From assembly GCF_013122565.1 (NCBI RefSeq), contig NZ_CP053258.1: a stretch of DNA of 64,000 bases; one strand, written 5' to 3'. Source of the stretch: Escherichia coli. GTDB taxonomy: Bacteria > Pseudomonadota > Gammaproteobacteria > Enterobacterales > Enterobacteriaceae. Both the position numbers and the translations under genes were made by a program. Below the pieces are notes generated by a model. It was not told the origin of the DNA. It searched no databases and was given only the letters and a program-made list of their open reading frames with translations. Below are positions 1 through 46,799 of this stretch, piece after piece (positions within the stretch are counted from its first letter, which is position 1; each line of letters starts with the position of its first letter).

Positions 1-119
1 ACAACATAGACCTGGTTGATTCGGTCAAAATATTGCTCAAGTTTGGCAAATTTGGCTGTAACAAATTCGCGCAGTGCCTCGGTGATCTCGACGTTATTTC
101 CGGTAATGTTGAGCTGCAT
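1..119 (-). CDS. hpf: Ribosome hibernation promoting factor, N-terminal part only (gene runs off the window start)
   Basis: Reverse-complement translation from ATG at 117-119 gives MQLNITGNNVEITEALREFVTAKFAKLEQYFDRINQVYVV, the Hpf N-terminus; lies just downstream of rpoN as in E. coli. Confidence 0.85.
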   Translation of the reverse strand, partial: MQLNITGNNVEITEALREFVTAKFAKLEQYFDRINQVYV

Positions 120-141
120 AGTGTCTTCCTTATCGGTTGGG

Positions 142-1575: not shown

Positions 1576-1622
1576 GTTCAGAATCGTACTCTCCTGCTAA
1601 AACGTCGCAAACTTCTACCCTA

Positions 1623-2348: not shown

Positions 2349-2354
2349 AACGAA

Positions 2355-5038: not shown

Positions 5039-6016
5039 TTATTCAACGAGTATTGGCGATAACCAGTACAACATCGCCAGCCATACGATAAATCCGCCAG
5101 TTAATAATACCCCTACACCACGGCCCGGTTGCGGGGAGCGCCGCCAGCACAGCAACGCAAAAATAATGCTCACCAGCAACATCACGCTGTAGTCACGACT
5201 GTACGCCAGTGGATCAATCTCTCCTGGCGTTATCAGCGCGGGTAAACCCAACACGATGACAATATTAAAAATGTTTGCGCCAATGATATTTCCGACAGCA
5301 ATGTCGTTTTCACCTTTGCGAACCCCCGCTATTGCGGTTGCCAGTTCCGGCAGGCTGGTTCCGATAGCAATTGCCGTCAGACCCATCGTCAACTCGCTGA
5401 TGGCAAAGTAATTCGCCAGCACCGTGGCGTTATCAACTACCATCCGCGTGGCCACTGGCATGATGATAAGCGCAATGCCGAGCCATAAAAACGCGACGGG
5501 CAATCCGCCGTCACGCGGCAGCTCTGCAAGCTGCTCTCTGGTCAGGCTGTCAGTCCCCTGACGTTCAGCCTGACGTGCAATTTTAACAATGAACAGCAGC
5601 CATAGCACAGCCAGAAAGAGGAGAAAGATACCATCGCTGCGACTAAGTTGTCCGTCATAGAGTACGGAACCGGCCACCACGCTGACCAACAACATTAAGG
5701 GTAATTCACGGCGCAGAACATCGGAATGGACGGTAAAAGGACGAACCAGCGCAGCCAGACCGAGGATCAGCAATATATTGATAATGTTTGAGCCGAGGGC
5801 TGTACCAACGGCTAAATCACGTTGTTCGTGCAGTGATGCGGCAAGCGAGACGATGATTTCTGGTAACGATGTACCAATACTGACCACCGTCATGCCGATG
5901 ATCAGCGGCGGGATGCCAAAGGTTCGGCAAAGAATAGACGCGGCAAAAACCAGGCGGTCGGCACTGTAAACGACCAAAAGTAAACCAACAATTAACAGTG
6001 CCGTAGCTAAAAGCAT
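5039..6016 (-). CDS. yrbG: Putative Na+/Ca2+ exchanger family inner membrane protein
   Basis: 325 aa polytopic ORF with two GTSLPE alpha-repeat motifs. Confidence 0.93.
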   Translation of the reverse strand: MLLATALLIVGLLLVVYSADRLVFAASILCRTFGIPPLIIGMTVVSIGTSLPEIIVSLAASLHEQRDLAVGTALGSNIINILLILGLAALVRPFTVHSDVLRRELPLMLLVSVVAGSVLYDGQLSRSDGIFLLFLAVLWLLFIVKIARQAERQGTDSLTREQLAELPRDGGLPVAFLWLGIALIIMPVATRMVVDNATVLANYFAISELTMGLTAIAIGTSLPELATAIAGVRKGENDIAVGNIIGANIFNIVIVLGLPALITPGEIDPLAYSRDYSVMLLVSIIFALLCWRRSPQPGRGVGVLLTGGFIVWLAMLYWLSPILVE

Positions 6017-27909: not shown

Positions 27910-28001
27910 GCCTGCAGATTTTACGTCCCGTCTCGGTACACCAAATCCCAGCAGTATTTGCATTTTTTACCCAAAACGAGTAGAATTTGCCACGTTTCAG
28001 G

Positions 28002-28078
<77 letters not shown>

Positions 28079-28200
28079 CTTTCCCTTAGAGTCCTTTTTC
28101 AAATATACTGTGAAGACTTCGGCCTTCGTAGTGGGATTTGAAAAAATCCTTCTGGAAAGTGCTCCAGACCGCAGTTGCGGTTATAGGGTTCAGTTATATA

Positions 28201-28226
28201 AAGCCCCGATTTATCGGGGTTTTTTG
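28201..28226 (+). terminator. First terminator/attenuator between metY and rimP
   Basis: AAGCCCCGATTTATCGGGGTTTTTTG. Confidence 0.75.
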
Positions 28227-28247
28227 TTATCTGACTACAGAATAACT

Positions 28248-28268
28248 GGGCTTTAGGCCCTTTTTTTA
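28248..28268 (+). terminator. Second terminator/attenuator between metY and rimP
   Basis: GGGCTTTAGGCCCTTTTTTT. Confidence 0.65.
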
Positions 28269-28284
28269 TGTCTTGGGGGTGGGC

Positions 28285-28737
28285 TTGTCCACATTAGAGC
28301 AAAAATTAACAGAGATGATTACTGCGCCAGTTGAGGCCCTGGGTTTTGAACTGGTTGGCATCGAATTTATTCGCGGTCGCACATCCACACTGCGCATCTA
28401 TATTGATAGTGAAGATGGCATCAATGTTGATGATTGTGCTGATGTGAGCCACCAGGTAAGTGCTGTGCTGGATGTTGAAGATCCCATCACCGTTGCTTAT
28501 AACCTGGAAGTCTCCTCACCGGGTCTCGATCGCCCACTGTTCACGGCTGAACACTACGCCCGTTTTGTCGGAGAAGAGGTGACTCTGGTTCTCCGTATGG
28601 CGGTACAAAACCGTCGTAAATGGCAGGGCGTTATCAAAGCGGTAGACGGTGAAATGATCACAGTTACCGTCGAAGGTAAAGATGAAGTGTTCGCGCTGAG
28701 TAATATCCAGAAGGCGAACCTGGTTCCCCACTTTTAA
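28285..28737 (+). CDS. rimP: Ribosome maturation factor RimP
   Basis: ORF 28273..28737; TTG at 28285 gives (M)[24 protein letters not shown]. Confidence 0.88.
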
Positions 28738-28764
28738 TAGTCTGGATGAGGTGAAAAGCCCGCG

Positions 28765-30252
<1,488 letters not shown>

Positions 30253-30276
30253 TAAACTGTAGCAGGAAGGAACAGC

Positions 30277-32949
30277 ATGACAGATGTAACGATTAAAACG
30301 CTGGCCGCAGAGCGACAGACCTCCGTGGAACGCCTGGTACAGCAATTTGCTGATGCAGGTATCCGGAAGTCTGCTGACGACTCTGTGTCTGCACAAGAGA
30401 AACAGACTTTGATTGACCACCTGAATCAGAAAAATTCAGGCCCGGACAAATTGACGCTGCAACGTAAAACACGCAGCACCCTTAACATTCCAGGTACCGG
30501 TGGAAAAAGCAAATCGGTACAAATCGAAGTCCGCAAGAAACGCACCTTTGTGAAACGCGATCCGCAAGAGGCTGAACGCCTTGCAGCGGAAGAGCAAGCG
30601 CAGCGTGAAGCGGAAGAGCAAGCCCGTCGTGAGGCAGAAGAATCGGCTAAACGCGAGGCGCAACAAAAAGCTGAACGTGAGGCCGCAGAACAAGCTAAGC
30701 GTGAAGCTGCTGAACAAGCGAAACGTGAAGCTGCGGAAAAAGACAAAGTGAGCAATCAACAAGACGATATGACTAAAAACGCCCAGGCTGAAAAAGCCCG
30801 CCGTGAGCAGGAAGCTGCAGAGCTCAAGCGTAAAGCCGAAGAAGAAGCGCGTCGTAAACTCGAAGAAGAAGCACGTCGCGTTGCTGAAGAAGCACGTCGT
30901 ATGGCGGAAGAAAACAAATGGACTGATAACGCGGAACCGACTGAAGATTCCAGCGATTATCACGTCACTACTTCTCAACATGCTCGCCAGGCAGAAGACG
31001 AAAGCGATCGTGAAGTCGAAGGCGGCCGTGGCCGTGGTCGTAACGCGAAAGCAGCGCGTCCGAAGAAAGGCAACAAACACGCTGAATCAAAAGCTGATCG
31101 TGAAGAAGCACGCGCAGCAGTACGTGGCGGTAAAGGCGGAAAACGTAAAGGTTCTTCGCTGCAGCAAGGCTTCCAGAAGCCAGCTCAGGCCGTTAACCGT
31201 GACGTTGTGATCGGCGAAACTATCACCGTTGGCGAACTGGCGAACAAGATGGCGGTTAAAGGCTCTCAGGTCATCAAAGCGATGATGAAACTGGGCGCAA
31301 TGGCAACCATCAACCAGGTTATCGATCAGGAAACCGCACAGCTGGTTGCTGAAGAGATGGGCCACAAAGTTATCCTGCGTCGTGAAAACGAGCTGGAAGA
31401 GGCGGTAATGAGCGACCGTGACACGGGTGCTGCGGCTGAACCGCGCGCGCCGGTTGTGACCATCATGGGTCACGTTGACCACGGTAAAACCTCTCTGCTG
31501 GACTACATTCGTTCAACGAAAGTGGCCTCTGGCGAAGCGGGCGGCATTACCCAGCACATTGGTGCATACCACGTTGAAACTGAAAACGGCATGATCACCT
31601 TCCTGGACACCCCGGGGCACGCCGCGTTTACTTCAATGCGTGCACGTGGTGCGCAGGCAACGGACATCGTAGTCCTGGTTGTTGCTGCCGACGACGGCGT
31701 AATGCCGCAGACCATCGAAGCAATCCAGCACGCGAAAGCGGCGCAGGTACCGGTGGTGGTTGCAGTGAACAAGATCGATAAACCAGAAGCCGATCCGGAT
31801 CGTGTTAAGAACGAACTCTCCCAGTATGGCATCCTGCCGGAAGAGTGGGGTGGTGAAAGCCAGTTCGTACACGTATCTGCGAAAGCGGGTACCGGCATCG
31901 ATGAACTGCTGGACGCTATCCTGCTGCAGGCGGAAGTTCTGGAGCTGAAAGCGGTACGTAAAGGTATGGCGAGCGGTGCGGTTATCGAATCCTTCCTCGA
32001 TAAAGGTCGTGGTCCGGTTGCTACCGTTCTGGTACGTGAAGGTACTCTGCACAAGGGCGATATCGTTCTGTGTGGCTTCGAATACGGTCGTGTTCGTGCG
32101 ATGCGTAACGAACTGGGTCAGGAAGTGCTGGAAGCGGGTCCGTCCATTCCGGTGGAAATCCTCGGCCTGTCCGGCGTTCCGGCTGCGGGTGATGAAGTTA
32201 CCGTTGTACGTGACGAGAAGAAAGCGCGTGAAGTTGCACTCTATCGTCAGGGTAAATTCCGCGAAGTTAAACTGGCGCGTCAGCAGAAATCTAAACTCGA
32301 GAACATGTTTGCCAACATGACCGAAGGCGAAGTTCACGAAGTGAATATCGTCCTGAAGGCAGACGTACAGGGTTCTGTGGAAGCGATCTCCGACTCCTTG
32401 CTGAAACTGTCTACTGACGAAGTTAAAGTGAAGATCATCGGTTCTGGCGTAGGTGGTATCACCGAAACCGACGCCACCCTGGCTGCGGCGTCCAACGCCA
32501 TCCTGGTTGGCTTCAACGTACGTGCTGATGCCTCTGCACGTAAAGTGATTGAAGCGGAAAGCCTGGATCTGCGTTACTACTCCGTCATCTATAACCTGAT
32601 CGACGAAGTGAAAGCGGCGATGAGCGGTATGCTGTCTCCGGAACTGAAACAGCAGATTATCGGTCTGGCGGAAGTTCGTGACGTGTTCAAATCGCCGAAA
32701 TTTGGTGCCATCGCAGGCTGTATGGTTACCGAAGGTGTGGTTAAACGTCACAACCCGATCCGCGTTCTGCGTGACAACGTGGTTATCTATGAAGGCGAGC
32801 TGGAGTCCCTGCGCCGCTTCAAAGATGACGTTAACGAAGTCCGTAACGGTATGGAATGTGGTATCGGCGTTAAGAACTACAACGACGTCCGCACTGGCGA
32901 TGTGATCGAAGTATTCGAAATCATCGAGATCCAACGTACCATCGCTTAA
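30277..32949 (+). CDS. infB: Translation initiation factor IF-2
   Basis: 890 aa ORF; charged repeat N-terminal region, G-domain [12 protein letters not shown] / DTPGH / NKID. Confidence 0.97.
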
Positions 32950-32966
32950 GGTTTTTAGGGTTCCAT

Positions 32967-33036
32967 GCGGGATAAGGCGTTTACGCCGCATCCGGCATGG
33001 ATTGCATGATGCGACGCTGGCGCGTCTTATCAGGCC
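32967..33036. repeat. REP palindromes in infB-rbfA intergenic region
   Basis: GCGGGATAAGGCGTTTACGCCGCATCCGGCA and GATGCGACGCTGGCGCGTCTTATCAGGCC. Confidence 0.75.
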
Positions 33037-33074
33037 AACGTGAACAGCCCTTCCACCTGAAATTAATTTTTAAA

Positions 33075-33097
33075 AAGGGGCTAACAGCCCCTTTTTT
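33075..33097 (+). terminator. Hairpin plus T-run upstream of rbfA (attenuator)
   Basis: AAGGGGCTAACAGCCCCTTTTTT. Confidence 0.65.
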
Positions 33098-33113
33098 GTC
33101 AGGAGAATTTATT

Positions 33114-33515
33114 ATGGCGAAAGAATTTGGTCGCCCGCAGCGCGTAGCGCAGGAAATGCAAAAAGAGATCGCTCTCATCCTGCAGCGTGAAATTAAAGAT
33201 CCTCGCCTGGGCATGATGACCACCGTTTCCGGTGTCGAAATGTCTCGCGACCTGGCGTATGCCAAAGTATATGTGACGTTCCTCAACGACAAAGATGAAG
33301 ACGCGGTTAAAGCGGGCATCAAAGCGTTGCAGGAAGCTTCTGGTTTCATCCGCAGCCTGCTGGGTAAAGCGATGCGCCTGCGTATCGTGCCGGAACTGAC
33401 CTTCTTCTACGACAACTCTCTGGTTGAAGGGATGCGTATGTCAAACCTGGTGACCAGCGTGGTCAAACATGACGAAGAACGTCGTGTTAACCCGGACGAC
33501 AGCAAGGAGGACTAA
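33114..33515 (+). CDS. rbfA: Ribosome-binding factor A
   Basis: ORF 32997..33515 trimmed to ATG 33114 ([26 protein letters not shown]). Confidence 0.94.
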
Positions 33516-34459
33516 TGAGTCGTCCTCGTCGTCGCGGTCGCGACATTAACGGCGTTTTGTTGCTGGATAAACCGCAGGGTATGTCCAGCAACGATGCGCT
33601 GCAAAAAGTGAAACGGATTTATAACGCCAACCGTGCCGGGCATACCGGTGCGCTGGACCCGCTGGCGACCGGCATGTTGCCGATTTGCCTCGGGGAAGCG
33701 ACGAAGTTTTCCCAGTATCTGCTGGACTCCGACAAACGCTATCGGGTCATTGCGCGTCTTGGACAGCGTACCGATACTTCTGACGCCGACGGACAAATCG
33801 TTGAAGAGCGTCCGGTAACCTTTAGTGCAGAACAACTGGCGGCGGCACTGGATACTTTCCGTGGCGATATCGAACAGATCCCATCGATGTATTCAGCACT
33901 GAAATACCAGGGCAAAAAACTGTACGAATATGCGCGTCAGGGCATTGAAGTTCCGCGTGAAGCGCGTCCGATTACCGTTTATGAATTGCTGTTTATTCGC
34001 CATGAAGGCAATGAGCTGGAGCTGGAAATTCACTGCTCAAAAGGCACTTATATCCGCACTATCATTGACGACCTGGGTGAGAAACTCGGCTGTGGCGCGC
34101 ATGTTATTTACCTGCGCCGTCTGGCGGTAAGTAAATATCCGGTTGAACGGATGGTGACCCTGGAACATCTGCGTGAACTGGTCGAACAAGCCGAACAGCA
34201 GGATATTCCAGCTGCGGAGTTACTTGATCCATTACTGATGCCAATGGACAGTCCAGCTTCGGACTATCCGGTGGTGAATCTTCCGTTAACGTCTTCTGTT
34301 TACTTCAAAAATGGTAACCCGGTTCGTACATCTGGCGCGCCGCTGGAAGGACTGGTTCGCGTCACGGAAGGTGAGTACGGCAAATTTATCGGTATGGGCG
34401 AAATTGACGATGAAGGCCGCGTTGCGCCTCGTCGTCTGGTGGTTGAATACCCGGCGTAA
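33515..34459 (+). CDS. truB: tRNA pseudouridine-55 synthase
   Basis: 314 aa ORF; catalytic Asp motif [15 protein letters not shown] overlaps rbfA stop. Confidence 0.97.
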
Positions 34460-34511
34460 TGTTAACCGTCTTGCGATAACAGGTCGCTACGAGTAGAATA
34501 CTGCCGCTTAA

Positions 34512-34877
<366 letters not shown>

Positions 34878-34894
34878 TTCTTGCGAGTTTCAGA

Positions 34895-34921
34895 AAAGGG
34901 GGCCTGAGTGGCCCCTTTTTT
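34895..34921. terminator. rpsO terminator, palindromic with U-runs on both strands
   Basis: AAAAGGGGGCCTGAGTGGCCCCTTTTTT. Confidence 0.8.
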
Positions 34922-35068
34922 CAAGCTGACGGCAGCAATTAACTGGAAACTAATGTATTGTTGCTATGAATGATCTTCCGTTGCAGAGGTTCGCGCGGCT
35001 AATGAGAGGCTTTACCCACATAGAGCTGGGTTAGGGTTGTCATTAGTCGCGAGGATGCGCAGAAGATC
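34895..35068 (-). ncRNA. sraG: SraG-type small RNA antisense to the pnp leader (bounds approximate, by position)
   Basis: Known position of SraG in the rpsO-pnp intergenic region on the opposite strand; the palindromic rpsO terminator supplies a minus-strand 3' end; no independent sequence proof of 5' end. Confidence 0.3.
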
Positions 35069-35123
35069 GGGTATTAACACCAGTGCCGTAAGGTACTGTC
35101 TAAGAAAGAGAAAGGATATTACA

Positions 35124-37259
35124 TTGCTTAATCCGATCGTTCGTAAATTCCAGTACGGCCAACACACCGTGACTCTGGAAACCGGCATGATGGCTCGTCA
35201 GGCTACTGCCGCTGTTATGGTTAGCATGGATGACACCGCGGTATTTGTTACCGTTGTTGGCCAGAAAAAAGCCAAACCAGGTCAGGACTTCTTCCCACTG
35301 ACCGTTAACTATCAGGAGCGTACCTACGCTGCTGGTCGTATCCCGGGTAGCTTCTTCCGTCGTGAAGGCCGCCCAAGCGAAGGCGAAACCCTGATCGCGC
35401 GTCTGATTGACCGCCCGATTCGCCCGCTGTTCCCGGAAGGCTTCGTCAACGAAGTTCAGGTTATCGCCACCGTGGTTTCTGTTAACCCGCAAGTTAACCC
35501 GGATATCGTCGCGATGATTGGTGCTTCCGCAGCACTGTCTCTGTCTGGTATTCCGTTCAATGGTCCGATTGGTGCTGCCCGCGTAGGTTACATCAATGAC
35601 CAGTACGTACTGAACCCGACTCAGGACGAGCTGAAAGAGAGCAAACTGGATCTGGTTGTTGCCGGTACTGAAGCCGCTGTACTGATGGTTGAATCTGAAG
35701 CTGAACTGCTGAGCGAAGACCAGATGCTGGGCGCAGTAGTGTTCGGTCATGAACAACAGCAGGTTGTTATTCAGAACATCAATGAACTGGTGAAAGAAGC
35801 CGGTAAACCGCGTTGGGACTGGCAGCCGGAGCCGGTAAACGAAGCGCTGAACGCGCGCGTTGCTGCACTGGCTGAAGCTCGTCTGAGCGATGCTTACCGC
35901 ATCACCGACAAACAAGAGCGTTATGCGCAGGTTGATGTCATCAAATCTGAAACCATCGCGACGCTGCTTGCTGAAGACGAAACCCTGGACGAAAACGAAC
36001 TGGGTGAAATTCTGCACGCTATCGAGAAAAACGTTGTTCGTAGCCGCGTACTGGCAGGCGAACCGCGTATCGACGGTCGTGAAAAAGATATGATCCGTGG
36101 TCTGGATGTGCGTACTGGTGTGCTGCCGCGTACTCACGGTTCTGCGCTGTTCACCCGTGGTGAAACGCAGGCGCTGGTTACCGCAACGCTGGGTACTGCT
36201 CGTGACGCGCAGGTTCTTGATGAACTGATGGGCGAACGTACCGATACCTTCCTGTTCCACTACAACTTCCCTCCGTACTCCGTAGGCGAAACCGGCATGG
36301 TCGGTTCTCCGAAGCGTCGTGAAATTGGTCACGGTCGTCTGGCGAAGCGCGGCGTGCTGGCAGTCATGCCGGATATGGACAAATTCCCGTACACCGTACG
36401 TGTTGTGTCTGAAATCACTGAATCCAACGGTTCCTCTTCTATGGCTTCCGTGTGCGGTGCGTCTCTGGCGCTGATGGACGCAGGTGTGCCAATCAAAGCT
36501 GCCGTTGCGGGTATCGCAATGGGTCTGGTGAAAGAAGGCGACAACTACGTTGTACTGTCTGACATTTTGGGCGACGAAGATCACCTGGGCGATATGGACT
36601 TCAAAGTTGCAGGTTCCCGCGACGGTATCTCTGCACTGCAGATGGATATCAAAATTGAAGGTATCACCAAAGAGATCATGCAGGTTGCACTGAACCAGGC
36701 TAAAGGTGCGCGTCTGCACATCCTGGGTGTAATGGAACAGGCGATCAACGCGCCGCGTGGCGATATCTCTGAGTTCGCACCGCGTATCCATACCATCAAG
36801 ATCAACCCGGACAAGATCAAAGATGTTATCGGTAAAGGCGGCTCTGTTATCCGTGCCCTGACCGAAGAAACCGGCACCACCATCGAAATCGAAGATGACG
36901 GTACTGTGAAGATCGCAGCGACCGACGGCGAGAAGGCGAAAAACGCTATTCGTCGTATCGAAGAGATCACTGCAGAAATTGAAGTGGGCCGCGTCTACAC
37001 TGGTAAAGTGACCCGTATCGTTGACTTTGGCGCATTTGTTGCCATCGGCGGCGGTAAAGAAGGTCTGGTACACATCTCTCAAATCGCTGACAAACGCGTT
37101 GAGAAAGTGACCGATTACCTGCAGATGGGTCAGGAAGTACCGGTGAAAGTTCTGGAAGTTGATCGCCAGGGCCGTATCCGTCTGAGCATTAAAGAAGCGA
37201 CTGAGCAGTCTCAACCTGCTGCAGCACCGGAAGCTCCGGCTGCTGAACAGGGCGAGTAA
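35124..37259 (+). CDS. pnp: Polynucleotide phosphorylase
   Basis: ORF 35037..37259 trimmed to TTG 35124 ((M)[20 protein letters not shown]), 711 aa; two RNase PH domains, KH and S1. Confidence 0.95.
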
Positions 37260-37367
37260 GGTTGCCATTTGCCCTCCGCTACGGCGGGGGGCTTTTAACC
37301 GGGCAGGACGCCTTGTTAGCAACCGGGAACAGGACGTTCATTCAACCGTGGTCTTCGGGAGTGGGAA

Positions 37368-38252
37368 ATGAAGCCTTTTTTGCGCTGGTGTTTCGTTGCG
37401 ACAGCACTTACGCTTGCAGGATGCAGTAATACTTCCTGGCGTAAAAGTGAAGTCCTCGCGGTACCATTGCAACCGACTTTACAGCAGGAAGTGATTCTGG
37501 CACGTATGGAACAAATCCTTGCCAGTCGGGCTTTAACCGATGACGAACGCGCACAGCTTTTATATGAGCGCGGAGTGTTGTATGATAGTCTCGGTCTGAG
37601 GGCATTAGCGCGTAACGATTTTTCGCAAGCGCTGGCAATCCGACCGGATATGCCTGAAGTATTCAATTACTTAGGCATATATTTAACGCAGGCAGGCAAT
37701 TTTGATGCTGCCTATGAAGCGTTTGATTCTGTACTTGAGCTTGATCCAACTTACAACTACGCGCACTTGAATCGCGGGATCGCATTATATTACGGCGGTC
37801 GTGACAAGTTAGCGCAAGATGATCTGCTGGCGTTTTATCAAGACGATCCCAATGATCCTTTCCGTAGTCTGTGGCTTTATCTCGCCGAGCAGAAGCTCGA
37901 TGAGAAGCAGGCTAAAGAAGTGTTGAAACAGCATTTCGAAAAATCGGATAAGGAACAGTGGGGATGGAACATTGTCGAGTTCTACCTGGGCAACATTAGC
38001 GAACAAACGTTAATGGAAAGGCTCAAGGCGGACGCAACGGATAACACCTCGCTCGCTGAGCATCTCAGTGAAACCAACTTCTATTTAGGTAAGTACTACC
38101 TAAGTCTGGGGGATTTGGACAGCGCCACGGCACTGTTCAAACTGGCGGTTGCCAACAACGTTCATAACTTTGTTGAGCACCGATACGCATTGTTGGAATT
38201 ATCGCTCCTGGGCCAGGACCAAGATGACCTGGCAGAATCGGACCAGCAATAG
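37368..38252 (+). CDS. nlpI: TPR-repeat lipoprotein NlpI
   Basis: 294 aa ORF with lipobox LAGC and TPR repeats. Confidence 0.96.
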
Positions 38253-38431
38253 CTGACGTACACATCAGCCCGTAATCTTTTTTGATTGCCATCACCTTAA
38301 CGGGTGAGGGCGTTGTTGTTCGTTAATACACCTACTTTGAGCCGGTTCACACTTTTCAATGAAAATTGCTGATCAATTTCATGATGAGTTATGTAGACTG
38401 GCCGCCATTAATTTTGAGGCACACGTACTAC

Positions 38432-40321
38432 ATGGCTGAATTCGAAACCACTTTTGCAGATCTGGGCCTGAAGGCTCCTATCCTTGAAGCCCTTAACGAT
38501 CTGGGTTACGAAAAACCATCTCCAATTCAGGCAGAGTGTATTCCACATCTGCTGAATGGCCGCGACGTTCTGGGTATGGCCCAGACGGGGAGCGGAAAAA
38601 CTGCAGCATTCTCTTTACCTCTGCTGCAGAATCTTGATCCTGAGCTGAAAGCACCACAGATTCTGGTGCTGGCACCGACCCGCGAACTGGCGGTACAGGT
38701 TGCTGAAGCAATGACGGATTTCTCTAAACACATGCGCGGCGTAAACGTGGTTGCCCTGTACGGCGGCCAGCGTTATGACGTGCAATTACGCGCCCTGCGT
38801 CAGGGGCCGCAGATCGTTGTCGGTACTCCGGGCCGTCTGCTGGACCACCTGAAACGTGGCACTCTGGACCTCTCTAAACTGAGCGGCCTGGTTCTGGATG
38901 AAGCTGACGAAATGCTGCGCATGGGCTTCATCGAAGACGTTGAAACCATTATGGCGCAGATACCGGAAGGTCATCAGACCGCTCTGTTCTCTGCAACCAT
39001 GCCGGAAGCGATTCGTCGCATTACCCGCCGCTTTATGAAAGAGCCGCAGGAAGTGCGCATTCAGTCCAGCGTGACTACCCGTCCTGACATCAGCCAGAGC
39101 TACTGGACTGTCTGGGGTATGCGTAAAAACGAAGCACTGGTACGTTTCCTGGAAGCGGAAGATTTTGATGCGGCGATTATCTTCGTTCGTACCAAAAATG
39201 CGACTCTGGAAGTGGCTGAAGCTCTTGAGCGTAACGGCTACAACAGCGCCGCGCTGAACGGTGACATGAACCAGGCGCTGCGTGAGCAGACACTGGAACG
39301 CCTGAAAGATGGTCGTCTGGACATCCTGATTGCGACCGACGTTGCAGCCCGTGGCCTGGACGTTGAGCGTATCAGCCTTGTAGTTAACTACGATATCCCG
39401 ATGGATTCTGAGTCTTACGTTCACCGTATCGGTCGTACCGGTCGTGCGGGTCGTGCTGGCCGCGCGCTGCTGTTCGTTGAGAACCGCGAGCGTCGTCTGC
39501 TGCGCAACATTGAACGTACTATGAAGCTGACTATTCCGGAAGTAGAACTGCCGAACGCAGAACTGCTGGGCAAACGCCGTCTGGAAAAATTCGCCGCTAA
39601 AGTACAGCAGCAGCTGGAAAGCAGCGATCTGGATCAATACCGCGCACTGCTGAGCAAAATTCAGCCGACTGCAGAAGGTGAAGAGCTGGATCTCGAAACT
39701 CTGGCTGCGGCACTGCTGAAAATGGCACAGGGTGAACGTACTCTGATTGTTCCGCCTGATGCGCCGATGCGTCCGAAACGTGAATTCCGTGACCGTGATG
39801 ACCGTGGTCCGCGCGATCGTAACGACCGTGGCCCGCGTGGCGACCGTGAAGATCGTCCGCGTCGTGAACGTCGTGATGTTGGTGACATGCAGCTGTACCG
39901 CATTGAAGTGGGCCGCGATGATGGTGTTGAAGTTCGTCATATCGTTGGCGCGATTGCTAACGAAGGCGACATCAGCAGCCGTTACATCGGTAACATCAAG
40001 CTGTTTGCTTCTCACTCCACCATCGAACTGCCGAAAGGTATGCCGGGTGAAGTGCTGCAACACTTTACGCGTACTCGCATTCTCAACAAGCCGATGAATA
40101 TGCAGTTACTGGGCGATGCACAGCCGCATACTGGCGGAGAGCGTCGTGGCGGTGGTCGTGGTTTCGGTGGCGAGCGTCGTGAAGGTGGTCGTAACTTCAG
40201 CGGTGAACGCCGTGAAGGTGGTCGTGGTGATGGTCGCCGTTTTAGCGGTGAACGTCGTGAAGGCCGCGCTCCGCGTCGTGATGACTCTACCGGTCGTCGT
40301 CGTTTTGGTGGTGATGCGTAA
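38432..40321 (+). CDS. deaD: DEAD-box ATP-dependent RNA helicase DeaD/CsdA
   Basis: ORF 38366..40321 trimmed to ATG 38432 ([13 protein letters not shown]); motifs [17 protein letters not shown]-rich C-terminal tail. Confidence 0.95.
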
Positions 40322-40346
40322 TCATCGCTGAACAGCGAAAACAATC

Positions 40347-40364
40347 TGTAAAATAATATATACA
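40347..40364 (+). promoter_or_regulatory. Candidate TyrR box upstream of mtr
   Basis: TGTAAA-N6-TATACA (consensus TGTAAA-N6-TTTACA). Confidence 0.5.
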
Positions 40365-40394
40365 GCCCCGATTTTAACAATCGGGGCTTTTTTT
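40365..40394 (+). terminator. Intrinsic terminator after deaD
   Basis: GCCCCGATTTTAACAATCGGGGCTTTTTTT. Confidence 0.8.
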
Positions 40395-40403
40395 CTGTCT
40401 TTT

Positions 40404-40421
40404 GTACTCGTGTACTGGTAC
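40404..40421 (+). promoter_or_regulatory. Candidate TrpR operator upstream of mtr
   Basis: GTACTCGTGTACTGGTAC resembles trp operator half-sites (GTACT...AGTAC). Confidence 0.5.
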
Positions 40422-40474
40422 AGTGCAATGCATAACAACGCAGTCGCACTATTTTTCACTGGAGAGAAGCCCTC

Positions 40475-41719
40475 ATGGCAACACTAACCACCACCCAAAC
40501 GTCACCGTCGCTGCTTGGCGGCGTGGTGATTATCGGCGGCACCATTATTGGCGCAGGGATGTTTTCTCTGCCAGTGGTCATGTCCGGTGCGTGGTTCTTC
40601 TGGTCAATGGCGGCGCTGATCTTCACCTGGTTCTGTATGCTGCATTCCGGCTTGATGATTCTGGAAGCTAACCTGAATTACCGAATCGGTTCGAGTTTTG
40701 ACACCATCACCAAAGATTTGCTGGGCAAAGGCTGGAACGTGGTCAACGGTATTTCCATTGCCTTTGTGCTCTATATCCTGACCTATGCCTATATTTCTGC
40801 CAGCGGTTCGATTCTGCATCATACCTTCGCAGAGATGTCATTGAACGTCCCGGCACGGGCAGCGGGTTTTGGTTTTGCACTGTTGGTGGCGTTTGTGGTG
40901 TGGTTGAGCACTAAAGCCGTCAGCCGCATGACGGCGATTGTGCTGGGGGCGAAAGTCATTACCTTCTTCCTCACCTTCGGTAGCCTGCTGGGGCATGTGC
41001 AGCCAGCGACATTGTTCAACGTCGCCGAAAGCAATGCATCTTATGCGCCGTATTTGCTGATGACGCTGCCGTTCTGCCTGGCGTCGTTTGGTTATCACGG
41101 TAACGTGCCGAGCCTGATGAAGTATTACGGCAAAGATCCGAAAACCATCGTGAAATGCCTGGTGTACGGTACGCTGATGGCACTGGCGCTGTATACCATC
41201 TGGTTGCTGGCGACGATGGGCAACATCCCTCGTCCGGAGTTTATCGGCATCGCCGAGAAGGGCGGTAACATTGATGTGCTGGTACAGGCGTTAAGCGGCG
41301 TGCTGAACAGCCGTAGTCTGGACCTTCTGCTGGTCGTGTTCTCAAATTTTGCGGTAGCGAGTTCGTTCCTCGGCGTAACGCTGGGCCTGTTTGACTATCT
41401 GGCAGACCTGTTTGGTTTTGACGACTCAGCCCTGGGCCGCTTTAAAACGGCATTGCTGACCTTTGCCCCGCCTGTCGTGGGTGGCCTGCTGTTCCCGAAT
41501 GGATTCCTGTACGCCATTGGTTATGCTGGCTTAGCGGCTACCATCTGGGCGGCAATCGTTCCGGCACTGCTGGCCCGCGCATCGCGTAAACGCTTTGGCA
41601 GCCCGAAATTCCGCGTCTGGGGCGGCAAGCCGATGATCGCGCTGATTCTGGTCTTCGGTGTTGGCAACGCACTGGTGCATATCTTATCGAGCTTTAATTT
41701 GCTGCCGGTGTATCAGTAA
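40475..41719 (+). CDS. mtr: Tryptophan-specific permease
   Basis: 414 aa polytopic [36 protein letters not shown]. Confidence 0.96.
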
Positions 41720-41724
41720 TCAGC

Positions 41725-41827
41725 GGTGCCTTATCCGACATTTCTGCTGCCTACACAATGCCTGATGCGCTTCGCTTATCAGGTCTACGTAGGACAGCGT
41801 TGCCAGCTCGGATAAGGCTTCCCGCGT
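41725..41827. repeat. REP/BIME cluster between mtr and yhbW
   Basis: GCCTGATGCGCTTCGCTTATCAGGTCTAC flanked by CCTTATCCGACA / CGGATAAGGC palindromic units. Confidence 0.7.
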
Positions 41828-41836
41828 TAAGACACA

Positions 41837-42844
41837 CTATCCCAACAACTCTTCCTTAACATCCATCGCCAGCTCAAACGAATGCAGGCGCGCCTGGTGG
41901 TCGAAAATCTGCCCGTTAACCATAATTTCATCGGCGTCGGTTTCGCGCAGGATCGACTGCAAACCATGACGCACTTTCGCTTTATCGCCCACCAGCGACA
42001 TGCTCAGCGCCTGCTGCACGCCATACTGCTCAGACGGTGACCAGAACTGATCCATATTTTGAATCGGCGGCGGCAGTTGCCCGGTTTCGCCACGGCGTAA
42101 CTTCACAAAGGCTTGCTGCATTGAGGTAAACAGAAATTCAGCGTCGCGGTTGCTGTCGGCGGCGATAATATTGATGCACACCATCGCGTATGGTTTCTCC
42201 AGCCGAGCCGACGGTTTGAAGTTGCTGCGATAAAGATGCAGCGCCTGGAACAACATATCCGGCGCGAAGTGTGAGGCAAACGCAAACGGCAGACCAAGCT
42301 GCCCCGCCAGTTGCGCGCTGTAAAGGCTGGAGCCTAACAACCACACGGGGATTTTCTCGCCATAGCCCGGCACTGGGCGCACATGCGGATTGGGATCGCG
42401 GGCGTCAAACCAGTCCACCAGCTCCGCGACATCGCGGGGGAAATTATCAATATCGCCGCTCATATGACGACGCAGCGCCATCATGGTTCGCTGATCGCTA
42501 CCCGGTGCACGACCCAGCCCCAAATCGATTCGCCCCGGATAGAGCGTATTGAGTGTGCCGAACTGTTCGGCAATCACCAACGGTGAGTGGTTAGGCAACA
42601 TCACGCCGCCGGACCCAAGATGCAGCGTGGTGGTATTCGCCGCCAGATAGCCAATTAACACAGACGTTGCAGCACTGGCAATGCCGGTCATATTGTGGTG
42701 TTCCGCCAGCCAGTAGCGATGATAGCCGCGCTTTTCAGCCAGACGGGCGAGATCGAGAGAGTGGGAGAATGCTTCTCGTGCTGAAGAACCTTCGGGGATG
42801 GGGGCCAGATCGAGTAGCGAAAACGCAATGGTTTTATCAGTCAT
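41837..42844 (-). CDS. yhbW: Luciferase-like (LLM-class) flavin-dependent monooxygenase
   Basis: 335 aa [29 protein letters not shown]. Confidence 0.93.
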
Positions 42845-42924
42845 AACAGCTCACTTTGTTACCGATTAATCTTTAATACTGCATTAAAGAGTAGTTAACG
42901 TTGTTAACAAAGTGAGCTATATAT

Positions 42925-43803
42925 TTACGCTTGCAGCTCCAGCCCCGCCAGCCGCCGCCAGTAGCCGTTACAGTCGCTGTTCGCCGTCAACGGTAGTGGC
43001 GCAGCGCCATTTTCATTAGCGCGGAAGGCGTCGAGCATCGCGAAAGTGTCACTGCCCTGCGGTGACAGGCGGACCACATCAACCAGCCCTTGCATGGATG
43101 CCAGCTCGTTACCGAGGTTGTACACGTAGCCGCTCATGGTCTGAATGCCATTGAGTACAAACACTTGTTGGTTCTCCTGCGACAGCACGTTGCGCCCGTT
43201 CGGATACTTAATGCAGCAGGTTTCGCACTCATCTTTCGGGCGGTCTTCCGAACGCGCGGTAAAGCAGCGGGCGGAGTAGGCCAGCGGCAGGTGACCGTAA
43301 CTCAGGACTTCCACTTCAAACTGGTTGCGAATGCCCAGTTCATCGCACTGGGTAAGCAGATTCACCAGCCAGTCGCGGGAAAGCTCCACCGGCATACACC
43401 AGCGCATCATGCCCTGTTTGAGCAATATTTTCAGCGTCACCGCGTTGTAGCAGTTCAGCGCGTGCCCGGCGACAAACGGCAGTTTACGTTCAGCGCACAT
43501 ATTCACCACGCCGAGATCGCTGGCTTCAATCAGAAACTCACCGTTCTCAACATAGCGTTTCAGTTCGCCCAGTTCAGATGATGCCTGCACCAGCGCCAGC
43601 GTGGAGAGCACTATCTGCTTACCACTTCCGGCGAGCGATTTTGCCATCTCCAGCCAGTCGCCAACTTTGGTTGCCCGGCGCTTGCTGCAAACCGCTTCAC
43701 CGAGATAAATCACGTCGGCGCTGCTGGTGGCGGCCTGCTGATAAAATTCTTCCAGCGTCTCTTTTGGCCAGTACCACAGCACTGGCCCTAAGGAATATTT
43801 CAT
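42925..43803 (-). CDS. ubiV: U32-family protein UbiV (O2-independent ubiquinone biosynthesis)
   Basis: ORF 42925..43821 trimmed to MKYSLGPVLWYWPKE; Cys cluster compatible with Fe-S binding. Confidence 0.88.
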   Translation of the reverse strand: MKYSLGPVLWYWPKETLEEFYQQAATSSADVIYLGEAVCSKRRATKVGDWLEMAKSLAGSGKQIVLSTLALVQASSELGELKRYVENGEFLIEASDLGVVNMCAERKLPFVAGHALNCYNAVTLKILLKQGMMRWCMPVELSRDWLVNLLTQCDELGIRNQFEVEVLSYGHLPLAYSARCFTARSEDRPKDECETCCIKYPNGRNVLSQENQQVFVLNGIQTMSGYVYNLGNELASMQGLVDVVRLSPQGSDTFAMLDAFRANENGAAPLPLTANSDCNGYWRRLAGLELQA

Positions 43804-43811
43804 TGCTTTTC

Positions 43812-44807
43812 TCACTGCCATTTACGGTGATACGCGCCAAGGGTGGTCTGCGTGCCTTCGGACATCGACCCGAGCGTCTCCATCCACGCGCTTTGCGGTA
43901 TGAAGTTTTGCGGATCGGCCTTACAACGGTCGATAGCCTGACGCCAGACTTTCGCCACCTGGCTGACATACGCCGGGCTACGCTGGCGGCCTTCAATTTT
44001 CACCGAAGCAATATTCGCTGCCATTAACTCCGGCAGCAGTTCCAGGGTATTGAGACTGGTTGGTTCTTCCAGCGCGTGATAGCGCTCGCCGTCCACCAGA
44101 TAACGCCCTTTACACAACGTCGGATAACCTGCGTTTTCGCCGTCCTGATAACGGTCGATCAGCACTTCGTTCAGGCGGGATTCCAGCCCCTGCGGCGTTT
44201 GTTGCCAGCGCACGAAACGGGCCGGAGAACACGCGCCTACGGTGTTGGGCGACTCACCCGTCAGATACGACGACAGATAGCAACGACCTTCCGACATAAT
44301 GCACAGGCTGCCGAAAGCAAAGACTTCCAGTGGTACAGGTGTGACCCGTGCCAGTTGTTTCACCTGATGAATCGACAACACGCGCGGCAGCACCACGCGG
44401 GCAACGTCAAAATGGCGATGATAAAAGTTAATCGCCTCTTCATTGGTCGCCGAAGCCTGCACTGACACATGACGCTCAATATGCGGGTAATGCTCGGCGG
44501 CGTACTCCAGCATGGCGAGGTCGGCGAGGATCAGCGCGTCGGCACCCAGCTGCGCCGCCATATCCACGGCGCGCTGCCAGCGGGCGTAACCGTCCGGATG
44601 CGCAAAAGTGTTAATCGCGATGTGAAGTTTGCGGCGATGTTGATGGACAAAACTCACCGCTTCCTGCAATTTTTTCTCGGTAAAGTTAAGGCCGGCGAAG
44701 TGACGGGCATTGGTATCATCTTTTAGCCCGATATAAACAGCATCTGCGCCGTTTTCGATGGCCGCCTTAAGCGCCGGGAGATTTCCGGCAGGGCAGAGCA
44801 GCTCCAT
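43812..44807 (-). CDS. ubiU: U32-family protein UbiU (O2-independent ubiquinone biosynthesis)
   Basis: ORF 43812..44834 trimmed to MELLCPAGNLPALKAAIENGADAVYIG. Confidence 0.88.
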   Translation of the reverse strand: MELLCPAGNLPALKAAIENGADAVYIGLKDDTNARHFAGLNFTEKKLQEAVSFVHQHRRKLHIAINTFAHPDGYARWQRAVDMAAQLGADALILADLAMLEYAAEHYPHIERHVSVQASATNEEAINFYHRHFDVARVVLPRVLSIHQVKQLARVTPVPLEVFAFGSLCIMSEGRCYLSSYLTGESPNTVGACSPARFVRWQQTPQGLESRLNEVLIDRYQDGENAGYPTLCKGRYLVDGERYHALEEPTSLNTLELLPELMAANIASVKIEGRQRSPAYVSQVAKVWRQAIDRCKADPQNFIPQSAWMETLGSMSEGTQTTLGAYHRKWQ

Positions 44808-45015
44808 AATTTTTCCTGAAGGTTGCGCTATCAAAACGCAAAAATGTTAACGAACTGGGATTTTAGTTAACCTTGCTGCGACAATTTTTGATTTAAGGCA
44901 GTTAAAGTTGTATTGGTGGTAGCAGCAATTTCATATGGAATTGTTGATTTATACCGCTATGTTATTTTTCTGATATGGCAAAATAGGATGATTGTTGAAA
45001 CAGGGAGTAAAACTC

Positions 45016-45540
45016 GTGTTGGATAAACTGCGTTCCCGTATTGTGCATTTGGGGCCATCTCTGTTGAGTGTACCGGTAAAACTGACGCCATTTGCGCTAA
45101 AACGCCAGGTTCTTGAGCAGGTCTTAAGCTGGCAATTCCGCCAGGCGCTGGATGATGGCGAGCTGGAGTTTCTTGAAGGCCGCTGGTTAAGTATTCATGT
45201 GCGTGATATTGACCTGCAATGGTTTACCTCGGTGGTGAATGGCAAACTGGTGGTCAGCCAGAACGCGCAAGCTGATGTGAGTTTTAGTGCCGACGCCAGC
45301 GATCTGCTGATGATTGCGGCGCGTAAACAAGATCCGGATACGCTCTTCTTCCAGCGTCGGCTGGTGATTGAAGGCGATACGGAGCTGGGGCTGTATGTGA
45401 AAAACCTGATGGACGCCATTGAACTGGAGCAAATGCCGAAAGCCTTACGCATGATGCTGCTGCAACTGGCGGATTTTGTTGAGGCGGGAATGAAAACCGC
45501 GCCTGAAACCAAACAGACATCGGTAGGTGAACCATGCTAA
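45016..45540 (+). CDS. ubiT: SCP2-domain protein UbiT
   Basis: ORF 44992..45540; GTG at 45016 gives (M)LDKLRSRIVHLGPSLLSVPVKL; divergent from ubiUV. Confidence 0.85.
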   Translation: MLDKLRSRIVHLGPSLLSVPVKLTPFALKRQVLEQVLSWQFRQALDDGELEFLEGRWLSIHVRDIDLQWFTSVVNGKLVVSQNAQADVSFSADASDLLMIAARKQDPDTLFFQRRLVIEGDTELGLYVKNLMDAIELEQMPKALRMMLLQLADFVEAGMKTAPETKQTSVGEPC

Positions 45541-46037
45541 TTCGAGTAGAAATTCCCATTGATGCGCCGGGTATTGATGCCCTGCTGCGTCGCTCATTCG
45601 AAAGTGATGCGGAAGCGAAGCTGGTTCACGATCTGCGTGAAGATGGCTTTCTGACGCTGGGGCTGGTGGCGACAGATGACGAAGGTCAGGTCATTGGCTA
45701 TGTGGCATTTAGTCCGGTTGATGTGCAGGGCGAAGACCTGCAATGGGTCGGCATGGCACCGTTGGCGGTTGATGAAAAATACCGTGGACAGGGGCTGGCA
45801 CGCCAACTGGTCTATGAAGGACTCGATTCGCTTAATGAGTTCGGCTATGCCGCAGTGGTGACGCTGGGCGATCCGGCGCTGTACAGCCGTTTTGGCTTTG
45901 AACTGGCGGCACATCACGACCTGCGTTGCCGCTGGCCAGGCACTGAAAGCGCCTTCCAGGTACATCGTTTAGCGGATGACGCGTTGAATGGCGTAACTGG
46001 TCTGGTTGAGTATCACGAGCATTTCAATCGCTTTTAA
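45534..46037 (+). CDS. yhbS: GNAT-family N-acetyltransferase
   Basis: 167 aa [25 protein letters not shown]; overlaps ubiT stop. Confidence 0.92.
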
Positions 46038-46326
46038 TCTCCGGGGTTTGCAGACTGCTTAACAGCTCTGCAAACCCTGCGCCTTCCGCTACCAGACGCT
46101 CTTTTTGCCGTTTGGTCAGTTGCTTAACGCGATATTCCGCCCGTAACGCCAGCGAACGATCGCCCACTGGTGCAGAAAACGCCAGCGTCAGTTCTCCTTT
46201 CCCGCGCAGTGCTTTCGCCCCTTTGCCGCTTTGGTGCTGCTGATAGCGGCGTTCGACATCCGTGGTGATCCCGGTATAAAGCTTATTGTCGGCGGTACGG
46301 ATCAAGTAAAGAAACCAGGGTGTCAT
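46024..46326 (-). CDS. yhbQ: GIY-YIG domain protein
   Basis: 100 aa [37 protein letters not shown]. Confidence 0.92.
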
Positions 46327-46376
46327 CGTCTGCGTCGCATGTTAAGGTCAGGCCCACAGTATAAAAGAGAACAGCA

Positions 46377-46799
46377 ATGGAAACACTCATCACCATCAGC
46401 CGTTGGTTGGCAAAACAACATGTTGTCACCTGGTGTGTGCAGCAGGAAGGGGAACTCTGGTGCGCTAATGCTTTTTATCTTTTTGATGCGCAGAAAGTCG
46501 CCTTCTACATTTTGACGGAAGAAAAAACGCGCCACGCGCAGATGAGTGGGCCGCAGGCTGCGGTTGCCGGAACGGTAAACGGTCAGCCGAAAACGGTAGC
46601 GTTAATTCGCGGCGTGCAGTTTAAAGGTGAGATCCGCAGGCTGGAAGGTGAGGAAAGCGACCTCGCGCGCCAGGCGTACAATCGTCGCTTTCCGGTTGCC
46701 AGAATGCTGTCGGCCCCGGTGTGGGAAATCCGGCTCGATGAAATCAAATTCACCGACAACACGCTGGGCTTTGGTAAAAAAATGATTTGGCTACGCGAC

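Follow-up and report, generated by a model that had tools for sequence, protein, structure and literature searches.

The deaD locus and its C-terminal tail

The window analyzed here is a stretch of 64,000 nucleotides from Escherichia coli (contig NZ_CP053258.1). It contains the gene order nlpI-deaD-mtr, which is identical to that annotated in E. coli genomes, and deaD is also the annotation of this gene in the matching E. coli genomes. Its truB-nlpI flank shares 99.5% of its DNA with E. coli; an origin from E. albertii, the top protein match, was rejected on a DNA identity of only 93% to that strain. The open reading frame 38432-40321 scored 1397.5 bits against the NCBIfam DeaD equivalog NF008642 (PRK11634; cut-off 989). 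Residues 1-629 aligned with profile positions 1-628, so the gene encodes a full-length orthologue of DeaD/CsdA. The E. coli protein is UniProt P0A9P6. The Pfam domains of the window's protein are arranged in the order DEAD (aa 30-196), Helicase_C (232-340), DeaD_dimer (374-443), DbpA (489-558) and DeaD_C (568-629). The region 40130-40321 is the 3′ end of this cold-shock helicase gene, deaD/csdA, and comprises its last 63 codons and the stop. The main features of the locus are as follows.

38432-40321, plus strand: deaD (csdA) coding sequence, stop included, for a DEAD-box RNA helicase of 629 aa (open reading frame list, Pfam, NCBIfam)
39896-40105, plus strand: DbpA-type RNA-binding domain, aa 489-558, directly before the tail (Pfam PF03880, E = 1.3e-20)
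40133-40318, plus strand: disordered Arg/Gly/Glu-rich C-terminal tail, aa 568-629 (Pfam PF12343, AlphaFold2, PDB search)
40364-40395, plus strand: intrinsic terminator of deaD (10-bp stem with six G-C pairs, 5-nt loop, T run)

An Rfam scan of positions 37000-42000 with a permissive threshold returned 0 families at threshold; the best E value was 0.09, and every match scored far below the gathering score. Three sub-threshold matches fell on the terminator and the intergenic region.

The tail matched the family PF12343 DeaD_C ("DeaD helicase C-terminal disordered region") with 45.6 bits (cut-off 23.3, E = 9e-12), and the match covered the whole profile (positions 1-62 of 62, aa 568-629). Arginine and glycine account for 29% and 30% of its residues and acidic residues for about 17%, which gives a net charge of +8. 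In an AlphaFold2 model built with 51 orthologues, the pLDDT of the tail was 42-49 per 10-residue block. DSSP assigned zero elements after residue 87 of the modeled fragment, so the tail was without secondary structure. Comparatively, the RNA-binding domain in the same model had a pLDDT of 62-78 and a beta-alpha fold. The sole PDB match to this part of DeaD was 5B88, which spans aa 481-564 and leaves the tail outside; the tail residues were present in none of the PDB chains. The tail is thus predicted to be an intrinsically disordered region. The family match, the composition and the pLDDT values below 50 agree with the original prediction of an Arg/Gly-rich, low-complexity DeaD tail made of tandem units. 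It is established that DeaD, its basic disordered C-terminal extension and the Pfam family of that extension were all known already. The feature is an ordinary one of DeaD, and its overall import for discovery is little.

The tail had also been called RGG-type, which proved to be a loose description. The classes of RGG/RG motifs (tri-RGG, di-RGG, tri-RG and di-RG, all with a spacing of 0-4 residues) are reportedly those of Thandapani et al. 2013. Regular expressions for tri-RGG, di-RGG and tri-RG found no match in the tail of the window, which has only one RGG tripeptide. The di-RG pattern, the weakest of the classes, was present as RGGGRG. Among 79 related tails, di-RGG was found in 18 and tri-RGG in one. 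E. coli is not known to have PRMT-type arginine methyltransferases, the modifiers of eukaryotic RGG boxes.

Anatomy of the repeat

Four degenerate copies of the unit [G/S]GERR[G/E]GGRxF, 11 residues long, make up the tail. Insertions have lengthened the last two, and the tail closes with the conserved RRRFGGDA.

40133-40165, plus strand: repeat unit 1, 11 aa (sequence reading, Tandem Repeats Finder period of 33, repeat search)
40166-40198, plus strand: repeat unit 2, 11 aa, holding at 40166-40192 the 27-mer quoted in the original prediction
40199-40243, plus strand: repeat unit 3, 15 aa (sequence reading, repeat search)
40244-40306, plus strand: degenerate repeat unit 4 (21 aa), with the conserved end GGDA after it at 40307-40318

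Units 1 and 2 are identical at 26 of 33 nucleotides and 9 of 11 amino acids. Tandem Repeats Finder, the check that had been suggested, detected the periodicity at the DNA level. It reported 40134-40228 with a period of 33, 2.9 copies, 75% matches, 0 indels and a score of 113. A repeat search found four in-register copies with spacings of 33, 33 and 12 and an identity of 60-79% to the reference copy. The tail had been described as near-repeats of the 27-mer. Degenerate copies do exist, but the 27-mer itself occurs exactly once and no other copy lies within three mismatches, so these "near-repeats" are quite degenerate. The period is in fact 33 nt (11 aa) and not 27. The longest exact DNA repeat in the tail is 15 bp.

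We compared the codons used for the same residue in different units. The same codon was used in 27 of 43 comparisons, where the codon usage of the gene body predicts 22.8 ± 3.8 (P = 0.16) and that of the tail itself predicts 27.8 (P = 0.62). Recent duplication or gene conversion between units was rejected, as the synonymous-codon agreement did not exceed the expectation from codon usage. The periodicity at the DNA level results from the peptide repeat together with the codon bias (CGT/GGT/GAA).

Length variation within E. coli

We surveyed 5,425-5,426 complete E. coli genomes by BLAST and counted those alleles whose junction or own sequence served as query. The tail had the same length as in the window in about 97% of them; the allele counts cover all but the genomes, about 25 at most, that matched a 121-bp query only in part. 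The following short sequences are involved in the length variants.

40181-40192, plus strand: 12-bp segment GAAGGTGGTCGT (EGGR), present as a tandem duplicate in about 3% of E. coli genomes (alignment)
40151-40162, plus strand: 12-bp direct repeat GGTGGTCGTGGT, left copy, 66 bp from its partner (exact-repeat search)
40217-40228, plus strand: the same 12-bp direct repeat, right copy (exact-repeat search, deletion alignment)
40141-40148, plus strand: 8-bp direct repeat GCGTCGTG, left copy, 132 bp from its partner (alignment with FXCREC035)
40273-40280, plus strand: the same 8-bp direct repeat, right copy (alignment with FXCREC035)

The tandem duplication of 12 bp adds EGGR and gives an allele of 633 aa. 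It was present in about 161 genomes: the query with the duplicated allele matched 161 genomes at 99% or more, and the query with the K-12 allele placed 162 genomes in the 90-95% band. The carriers include strain 042, ST69/ST70 isolates and PCN033, which suggests a lineage marker more than a recurring event. The copies of GGTGGTCGTGGT are the endpoints of a natural deletion of 66 bp, exactly two units (-22 aa), in three genomes, namely E. coli O145:H28 RM13516 and RM12761 and 14EC047. This deletion was found on two different flanking haplotypes. The copies of GCGTCGTG are the endpoints of a natural 132-bp deletion (-44 aa) which removes the repeat array in two genomes, FXCREC004 and FXCREC035, clinical urinary isolates from Shanghai. 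As these two isolates lack nearly the whole array, the array is dispensable for viability. No unit-sized insertion was found in about 155 sampled BLAST rows, where such insertions could be masked as split matches.

All the observed indels were multiples of three and kept the C-terminal RRRFGGDA. The original prediction that the tail can expand and contract is thus supported by natural in-frame alleles of +12, -66 and -132 bp with endpoints in repeats, though the turnover is slow. The proposed comparison of lengths among strains did reveal variation, which is rare. The turnover of the tail is slow and evolutionary and does not amount to hypermutability, given that a single length prevails in about 97% of the E. 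coli genomes. At the strain level, E. coli has a stable tail length apart from a few defined in-frame alleles, the endpoints of which lie in short direct repeats.

The tail across Enterobacterales

Among 79 Enterobacterales genomes, the tail ranged from 53 to 97 aa, and its net charge was +8 or +9 in 77 of them. Units of the 11-residue type recurred in all 79, with numbers that differ among genera, and the ending RRRFGGDA was common to 29 tails. Several natural changes were seen: in Serratia oryzae, 42 bp are duplicated perfectly in tandem, S. enterica arizonae has 18 bp more (FSGERR), and the type strain of E. albertii has 6 bp less. These observations showed that the tail is conserved across Enterobacterales as a type, though not in its exact sequence.

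The 77 distinct tails had 16-28 basic and 8-19 acidic residues, and 75 of them had a net charge of +8 or +9. The standard deviation of the net charge was 0.58, compared with 3.09 expected under independent basic and acidic counts, and none of 10,000 permutations reached 0.58; the permutation statistic ignores the phylogenetic non-independence of the 79 genomes and its scope is Enterobacterales. It appears that selection holds the net charge near +8/+9 rather than the length or the sequence. In E. coli, the +12 bp allele is charge-neutral, the -66 bp allele has a net charge of +6 and the -132 bp allele has +1.

Alternative explanations

It might be argued that there is no true repeat, just a chance periodicity of a low-complexity composition. 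The tail peptide has 20 matches at lag 11, a modest excess over shuffles of its own composition (P = 0.021), and so modest a result would suit this explanation. However, the score of 113 at period 33 without indels, the four in-register copies and the natural deletions that take out exactly two units all speak against it. Like units, varying in number, were found in 79 of 79 related tails. This conservation across species ruled out chance periodicity, to which we assign hardly any probability. Another explanation takes the repeat as real and views it as a hypermutable contingency repeat, in which frequent slippage adaptively tunes or switches DeaD through the length of the tail. Length variants with endpoints in repeats do exist in E. 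coli, and the occurrence of the 66-bp deletion on two haplotypes is compatible with recurrence. Contingency loci are long perfect tracts, whereas here identity between units is only 60-79% and exact repeats do not exceed 15 bp. Moreover, one length prevails in the census, the +12 allele behaves like a lineage marker and synonymous sites show no homogenization between units. As every variant is in frame, on/off switching is excluded. With its imperfect units and rare in-frame changes, a hypermutable contingency repeat is largely refuted and we regard it as very unlikely.

Two further explanations were considered. In one, the repeat works at the level of nucleic acid, as a structured or G-rich element at the 3′ end of the deaD mRNA, for example in autoregulation by bound DeaD, and the peptide repeat is secondary. 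The segment is G-rich, and the RNA-binding domain of CsdA reportedly prefers G-rich single-stranded RNA (PMC11850223). There is also a weak site of a hairpin followed by T at 40278-40300, but it has only three G-C pairs, and no Rfam family reached the threshold in 37000-42000. The tail peptide is identical to its K-12 counterpart. The DNA differs at eight sites in the last 213 bp, all of them synonymous and at third codon positions, so it is the peptide that is conserved and not the nucleotide sequence. Codon choice is also no more alike between units than codon usage predicts. An RNA element of this kind is very unlikely. In the other explanation, an antisense frame is a real overlapping gene:

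40012-40449, minus strand: Pro/Arg/Ser-rich antisense open reading frame of 145 aa with a GTG start, judged not to be a gene (open reading frame list)

The original prediction considered this frame spurious. It could be defended as an overlapping gene by its 145 codons with a GTG start and by the tail differences from K-12, of which 8/8 are synonymous in the antisense frame too. However, its wobble positions coincide with those of deaD, which makes the silent pattern automatic and of no use for discriminating between deaD and the antisense frame. Neither its start nor its length is conserved. It starts 128 nt past the deaD stop in the window and 23 nt past it in K-12, and in other genera it starts at a dozen other positions with a length of 58-193 aa, or is absent. 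It would also cross the deaD terminator in antisense, and a search against NCBIfam gave zero family matches. Tails of this type generally leave antisense frames open: two of the three frames have no stop across the tail, one in 64 and the other in 70 of the 82 loci, since a stop on the opposite strand cannot arise from Gly, Arg or Glu codons. These data support the view that the frame is a by-product of composition rather than a gene, and annotators should ignore this artefact. That a gene exists here is extremely unlikely in our view.

Possible function and evolution of the tail

Taken as a whole, we consider it probable that the region encodes a disordered, four-unit DeaD tail which serves as an RNA tether and multivalent module, turns over through short repeats and is held by its charge. 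By analogy with other helicases, its most likely role would be that of a non-specific electrostatic RNA tether combined with a multivalent interaction module. Following the RRM-like RNA-binding domain, the tail might act as a flexible, non-specific electrostatic tether. Such a tether would raise the affinity for RNA and could support ATP-independent strand annealing, and multivalent contacts of the tail may contribute to DeaD condensates, the roles in tethering, annealing and condensates being extensions of what is reported for the whole CTD and for other helicases. The ATP-independent annealing by CsdA was ascribed to its basic extension (PMC3590231). Purified DeaD undergoes salt-dependent phase separation and forms condensates in cells (PMC12758526). 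For RhlB, Mss116p and CYT-19, non-specific RNA binding by the basic C-terminal extension is documented (PMC3814787). According to the summary of Xu et al. 2017 in PMC11850223, constructs with and without the C-terminal tail were compared and RNA is anchored mainly by the RNA-binding domain. PMC11850223 also reports that the ATPase and unwinding activities of a CsdA construct without the tail were still above those of the dimeric core, which indicates that core activity does not depend on the tail.

In terms of DNA, the repeated codons create direct repeats of 8-15 bp, between which occasional in-frame duplications and deletions occur, probably through replication slippage or microhomology-mediated recombination. 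The periodicity of the DNA and the antisense open reading frame are both passive outcomes of the peptide repeat and the CGT/GGT/GAA codon bias. We suggest tentatively, with somewhat more doubt than belief, that the tail is under selection for a fixed net charge and that gains and losses of units are tolerated only with a joint change of basic and acidic residues. If this constraint is true, the -22 aa (+6) and -44 aa (+1) alleles would be natural hypomorphs for growth at low temperature, for the annealing of RNA or for the formation of condensates by DeaD. The constancy of +8/+9 over 53-97 residues is a simple, testable design rule for the disordered region of this bacterial helicase, and the natural deletion alleles are ready-made material for testing it.

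Comparison with known systems

Compared with PF12343 and E. coli DeaD, the tail differs in nothing material beyond the eight synonymous sites against K-12. The C-terminal extensions of Mss116p, CYT-19 and RhlB are likewise unstructured and positively charged and follow the helicase core, which makes them a working model for the DeaD tail. Non-specific RNA binding is described for such basic tails, as is tethering of the core to large substrates (PMC3814787; Mallam et al. 2011, via PMC3590231). The DeaD tail has no sequence homology to them, its GERREGGR units are of mixed charge rather than purely basic, and, unlike them, it follows a dimerization domain and an RRM-like RNA-binding domain. RhlE1 and RhlE2 of Pseudomonas aeruginosa are also bacterial DEAD-box helicases with C-terminal disordered regions, and these divergent regions influence how the enzymes bind RNA, unwind it and phase-separate (PMC11260450). 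They differ from DeaD in belonging to another helicase subfamily, in having disordered regions of unrelated sequence and in lacking a preceding DbpA-type domain.

Simple-sequence contingency loci share with the deaD tail the presence of tandem repeats in a coding region and changes of length by repeat misalignment. In contrast, the repeats of deaD are imperfect (75% matches), and its rare changes preserve the reading frame and cause no on/off switching. The eukaryotic RGG/RG boxes, such as those in the tails of FUS, LAF-1/DDX3 and Ded1, resemble the DeaD tail in being Arg/Gly-rich and disordered with interspersed Phe, and they too sit on RNA-binding proteins or DEAD-box helicases that phase-separate. 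Compared with these classical boxes, the DeaD tail carries two Glu per unit, is about 17% acidic and has a single RGG.

The tail as a named region of DeaD

The Arg/Gly-rich C-terminal tail of DeaD (CsdA) and the features around it are as follows.

38432-40321, + strand: deaD ORF, 629 codons, with NCBIfam and Pfam matches
40130-40321, + strand: tail, the last 63 codons and the stop of this ORF
37368-38252: nlpI, on one flank of the deaD ORF
40475-41719: mtr, on the other flank
40364-40395: intrinsic terminator downstream of deaD
40012-40449, - strand: antisense ORF, 145 aa
DeaD aa 489-558: DbpA-type RNA-binding domain (Pfam)
DeaD aa 568-629: PF12343, "DeaD helicase C-terminal disordered region" (Pfam), whole profile, 45.6 bits against a cut-off of 23.3

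The ORF protein matched the DeaD equivalog NF008642 of NCBIfam (1397.5 bits, cut-off 989), and its Pfam domains were DEAD, Helicase_C, the DeaD dimerisation domain, the DbpA-type RNA-binding domain and PF12343. The ORF is a member of DeaD and the tail a member of Pfam DeaD_C. As PF12343 covers aa 568-629, the feature of the original prediction already has a name and a curated family, within a protein that is well studied. The observation was confirmed and its interpretation is supported with qualifications, but the feature was already known and is of little interest; only two points are mildly new: E. coli has defined in-frame alleles of natural origin, and the net charge of the tail is nearly constant although its length varies. 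No Rfam family matched the tail region.

Several smaller features were seen in and beside the gene. A second mixed-charge low-complexity stretch, a linker at 39752-39900 (DeaD aa 441-490; 17 basic and 13 acidic residues), joins the dimerisation domain to the RNA-binding domain and holds weak period-9 TRF rows at 39753-39776 and 39823-39848. At 38359-38439 lies a small intact ORF of 26 codons, yrbN in E. coli genome annotations; its 8-nt overlap with deaD takes in the start codon and is in a different frame. The start annotated for deaD is not the one in the ORF listing, where the gene runs back to a TTG at 38366 and encodes 651 aa. Within the coding sequence, at 40278-40300, a hairpin of 9 pairs, of which only 3 are G-C, is followed by T-rich sequence and resembles a terminator, probably by chance.

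Degenerate repeats with a period of 33 nt

The tail comprises four units, each with [G/S]GERR at the start and Phe at the end, and insertions lengthen the last two. Tandem repeats finder reported 40134-40228 with a period of 33, 2.9 copies, 75% matches and a score of 113, and a repeat search gave four in-register copies that were 60-79% identical to the reference copy. The 11-residue periodicity was modest against shuffles of the tail's own composition (P = 0.021). The units were present again in every related genome examined. The predicted tandem repeats are real but degenerate. The 27-mer given in the original prediction occurs once, at 40166-40192, no further copy was found within three mismatches, and the repeats have a period of 33 nt rather than 27.

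The codon-agreement test between units found no DNA periodicity beyond the peptide repeat. Identical codons were used in 27 of the 43 same-residue comparisons, where 22.8 ± 3.8 were expected from gene-body usage (P = 0.16) and 27.8 from the tail's own usage (P = 0.62). With codon agreement at chance and the longest exact repeat in the tail DNA at 15 bp, this genome shows no trace of a recent duplication or of homogenisation between units. The DNA periodicity is that of an old peptide repeat written in preferred CGT, GGT and GAA codons.

Length variation

The comparison of tail lengths among strains that the original prediction proposed was made across 5,426 complete E. coli genomes; the query was the 210-bp K-12 allele. 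At least 95% identity was found in 5,263 genomes, and all 57 sampled matches of this class spanned exactly the query length. A single allele accounts for another 162 genomes, in the 90-95% band: it has GAAGG(T/C)GGTCGT duplicated in tandem, a gain of 12 bp, which adds EGGR and gives a 633-aa protein; it was matched at 99% or more by 161 genomes, including strain 042, ST69/ST70 isolates and PCN033. A 132-bp deletion between two GCGTCGTG repeats (40141 and 40273) was found in FXCREC004 and FXCREC035, two genomes of one Shanghai collection; it takes out the repeat array, and 18 residues are quoted as what remains. A 66-bp deletion of exactly two units, with 12-bp repeats GGTGGYCGTGGT (40151 and 40217) at its endpoints, was found in three genomes, O145:H28 RM13516 and RM12761, and 14EC047. 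The loci of 14EC047 and RM13516 (L087 and L088, positions 1-3081) match throughout the tail; 13 differences separate them over 1.5 kb of upstream sequence, and mtr holds many. Since the flanking haplotypes differ, the sequences suggest that this deletion arose twice or was moved by recombination. Every E. coli length variant found was in frame. The census is incomplete: it covers the alleles described here, about 25 genomes with partial coverage of a 121-bp query fall outside it, and unit-sized insertions may hide as split matches, although none appeared among about 155 sampled matches.

In a scan at one genome per species, the best 80 loci were from Enterobacterales. Tails measured from the conserved LLGDA ranged from 53 to 97 residues, varying in how often the 10-letter repeat unit and another unit, APRRDD, occur. 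Close relatives differ by small events: -6 bp in the type strain of E. albertii and +18 bp (FSGERR) in S. enterica arizonae. The tail of Serratia oryzae (locus L071) carries a perfect 42-bp tandem duplication, ERREGAGAPRRSFG twice, the only long exact DNA repeat among 79 tails; it is evidence of a recent expansion and would mean that duplication still happens. Considering the E. coli alleles and the differences among species, the prediction that the tail can expand or contract was correct. Its tempo is evolutionary, unlike that of a contingency locus, a model that we rejected since all three of its defining features failed.

The best 80 loci included none from E. coli, Shigella, E. fergusonii or S. 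enterica subsp. enterica, even though E. coli genomes match the upstream truB-nlpI flank (34000-38400) at 99.5% identity; ranked first was the E. albertii type strain (protein 99%, DNA only 93% identity). Compared with the closest E. coli genome, JX21CE8, a divergent mosaic block spans 39500-44500 and takes in the deaD 3′ end, mtr, yhbW and ubiV. There were 11-30 mismatches per 500 bp over 40000-43500, and 0-8 over 28000-39999 and 44500-46400. Such a block accounts for the identity of at most 97.7% between the tail region and any of the 5,426 E. coli genomes, against 99.5% for truB-nlpI. It was probably imported by recombination, the donor being a divergent lineage of Escherichia.

Antisense ORFs

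The Pro/Arg-rich antisense ORF exists and, as predicted, is spurious. We rejected it as a gene: it had no NCBIfam match, it crosses the deaD terminator in antisense, and its start is not fixed: beyond the deaD stop it lies at a distance of 128 nt here and of 23 nt in K-12, and other genera have it at many further positions or lack it. In two of the three antisense frames, no stop interrupts the tail in 64 and 70 of 82 loci, because Gly, Arg and Glu codons give no antisense stops in those frames. A synonymous/non-synonymous test is non-discriminating, as the wobble positions of this frame are also those of deaD. Most of the deaD body also lies opposite a larger shadow ORF of this type (38786-40063, - strand, 425 aa).

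Charge, disorder and possible function

Among 77 distinct tails, 16-28 basic and 8-19 acidic residues were counted; the counts co-varied (r = 0.97), and the net charge was +8 or +9 in 75. Its standard deviation was 0.58, against 3.09 expected for independent counts (0 of 10,000 permutations, shared ancestry ignored). The common E. coli allele with the 12-bp duplication is charge-neutral, and the rare deletions lower the net charge to +6 and +1. A constraint on net charge is suggestive rather than proven, because the test ignores shared ancestry.

The only PDB match to the C-terminal part of DeaD, chain 5B88, ends at aa 564. AlphaFold2 (51 orthologues) gave the RNA-binding domain a beta-alpha fold (pLDDT 62-78) and the tail a pLDDT below 50 without secondary structure. 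ATP-independent annealing has been ascribed to the basic extension of CsdA (PMC3590231), and non-specific RNA binding is a property of the basic extensions in RhlB, Mss116p and CYT-19 (PMC3814787). According to a 2025 paper on the related helicase Hera, which recounts Xu et al. 2017, the RNA-binding domain of CsdA is the main RNA anchor, full-length CsdA binds most tightly, and a construct without the C-terminal tail keeps ATPase and unwinding enhanced relative to the core (PMC11850223). Phase separation of purified DeaD depends on salt and concentration, and DeaD condensates form in cells (PMC12758526). Judging from these papers and the charge constancy, the tail would most likely act as a flexible electrostatic RNA tether and a multivalent interaction module.

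The predicted RGG-type character holds only loosely: the RGG tripeptide occurs once, and the weakest motif class (di-RG) is the only one present. The units differ from RGG/RG boxes in that each contains two Glu.
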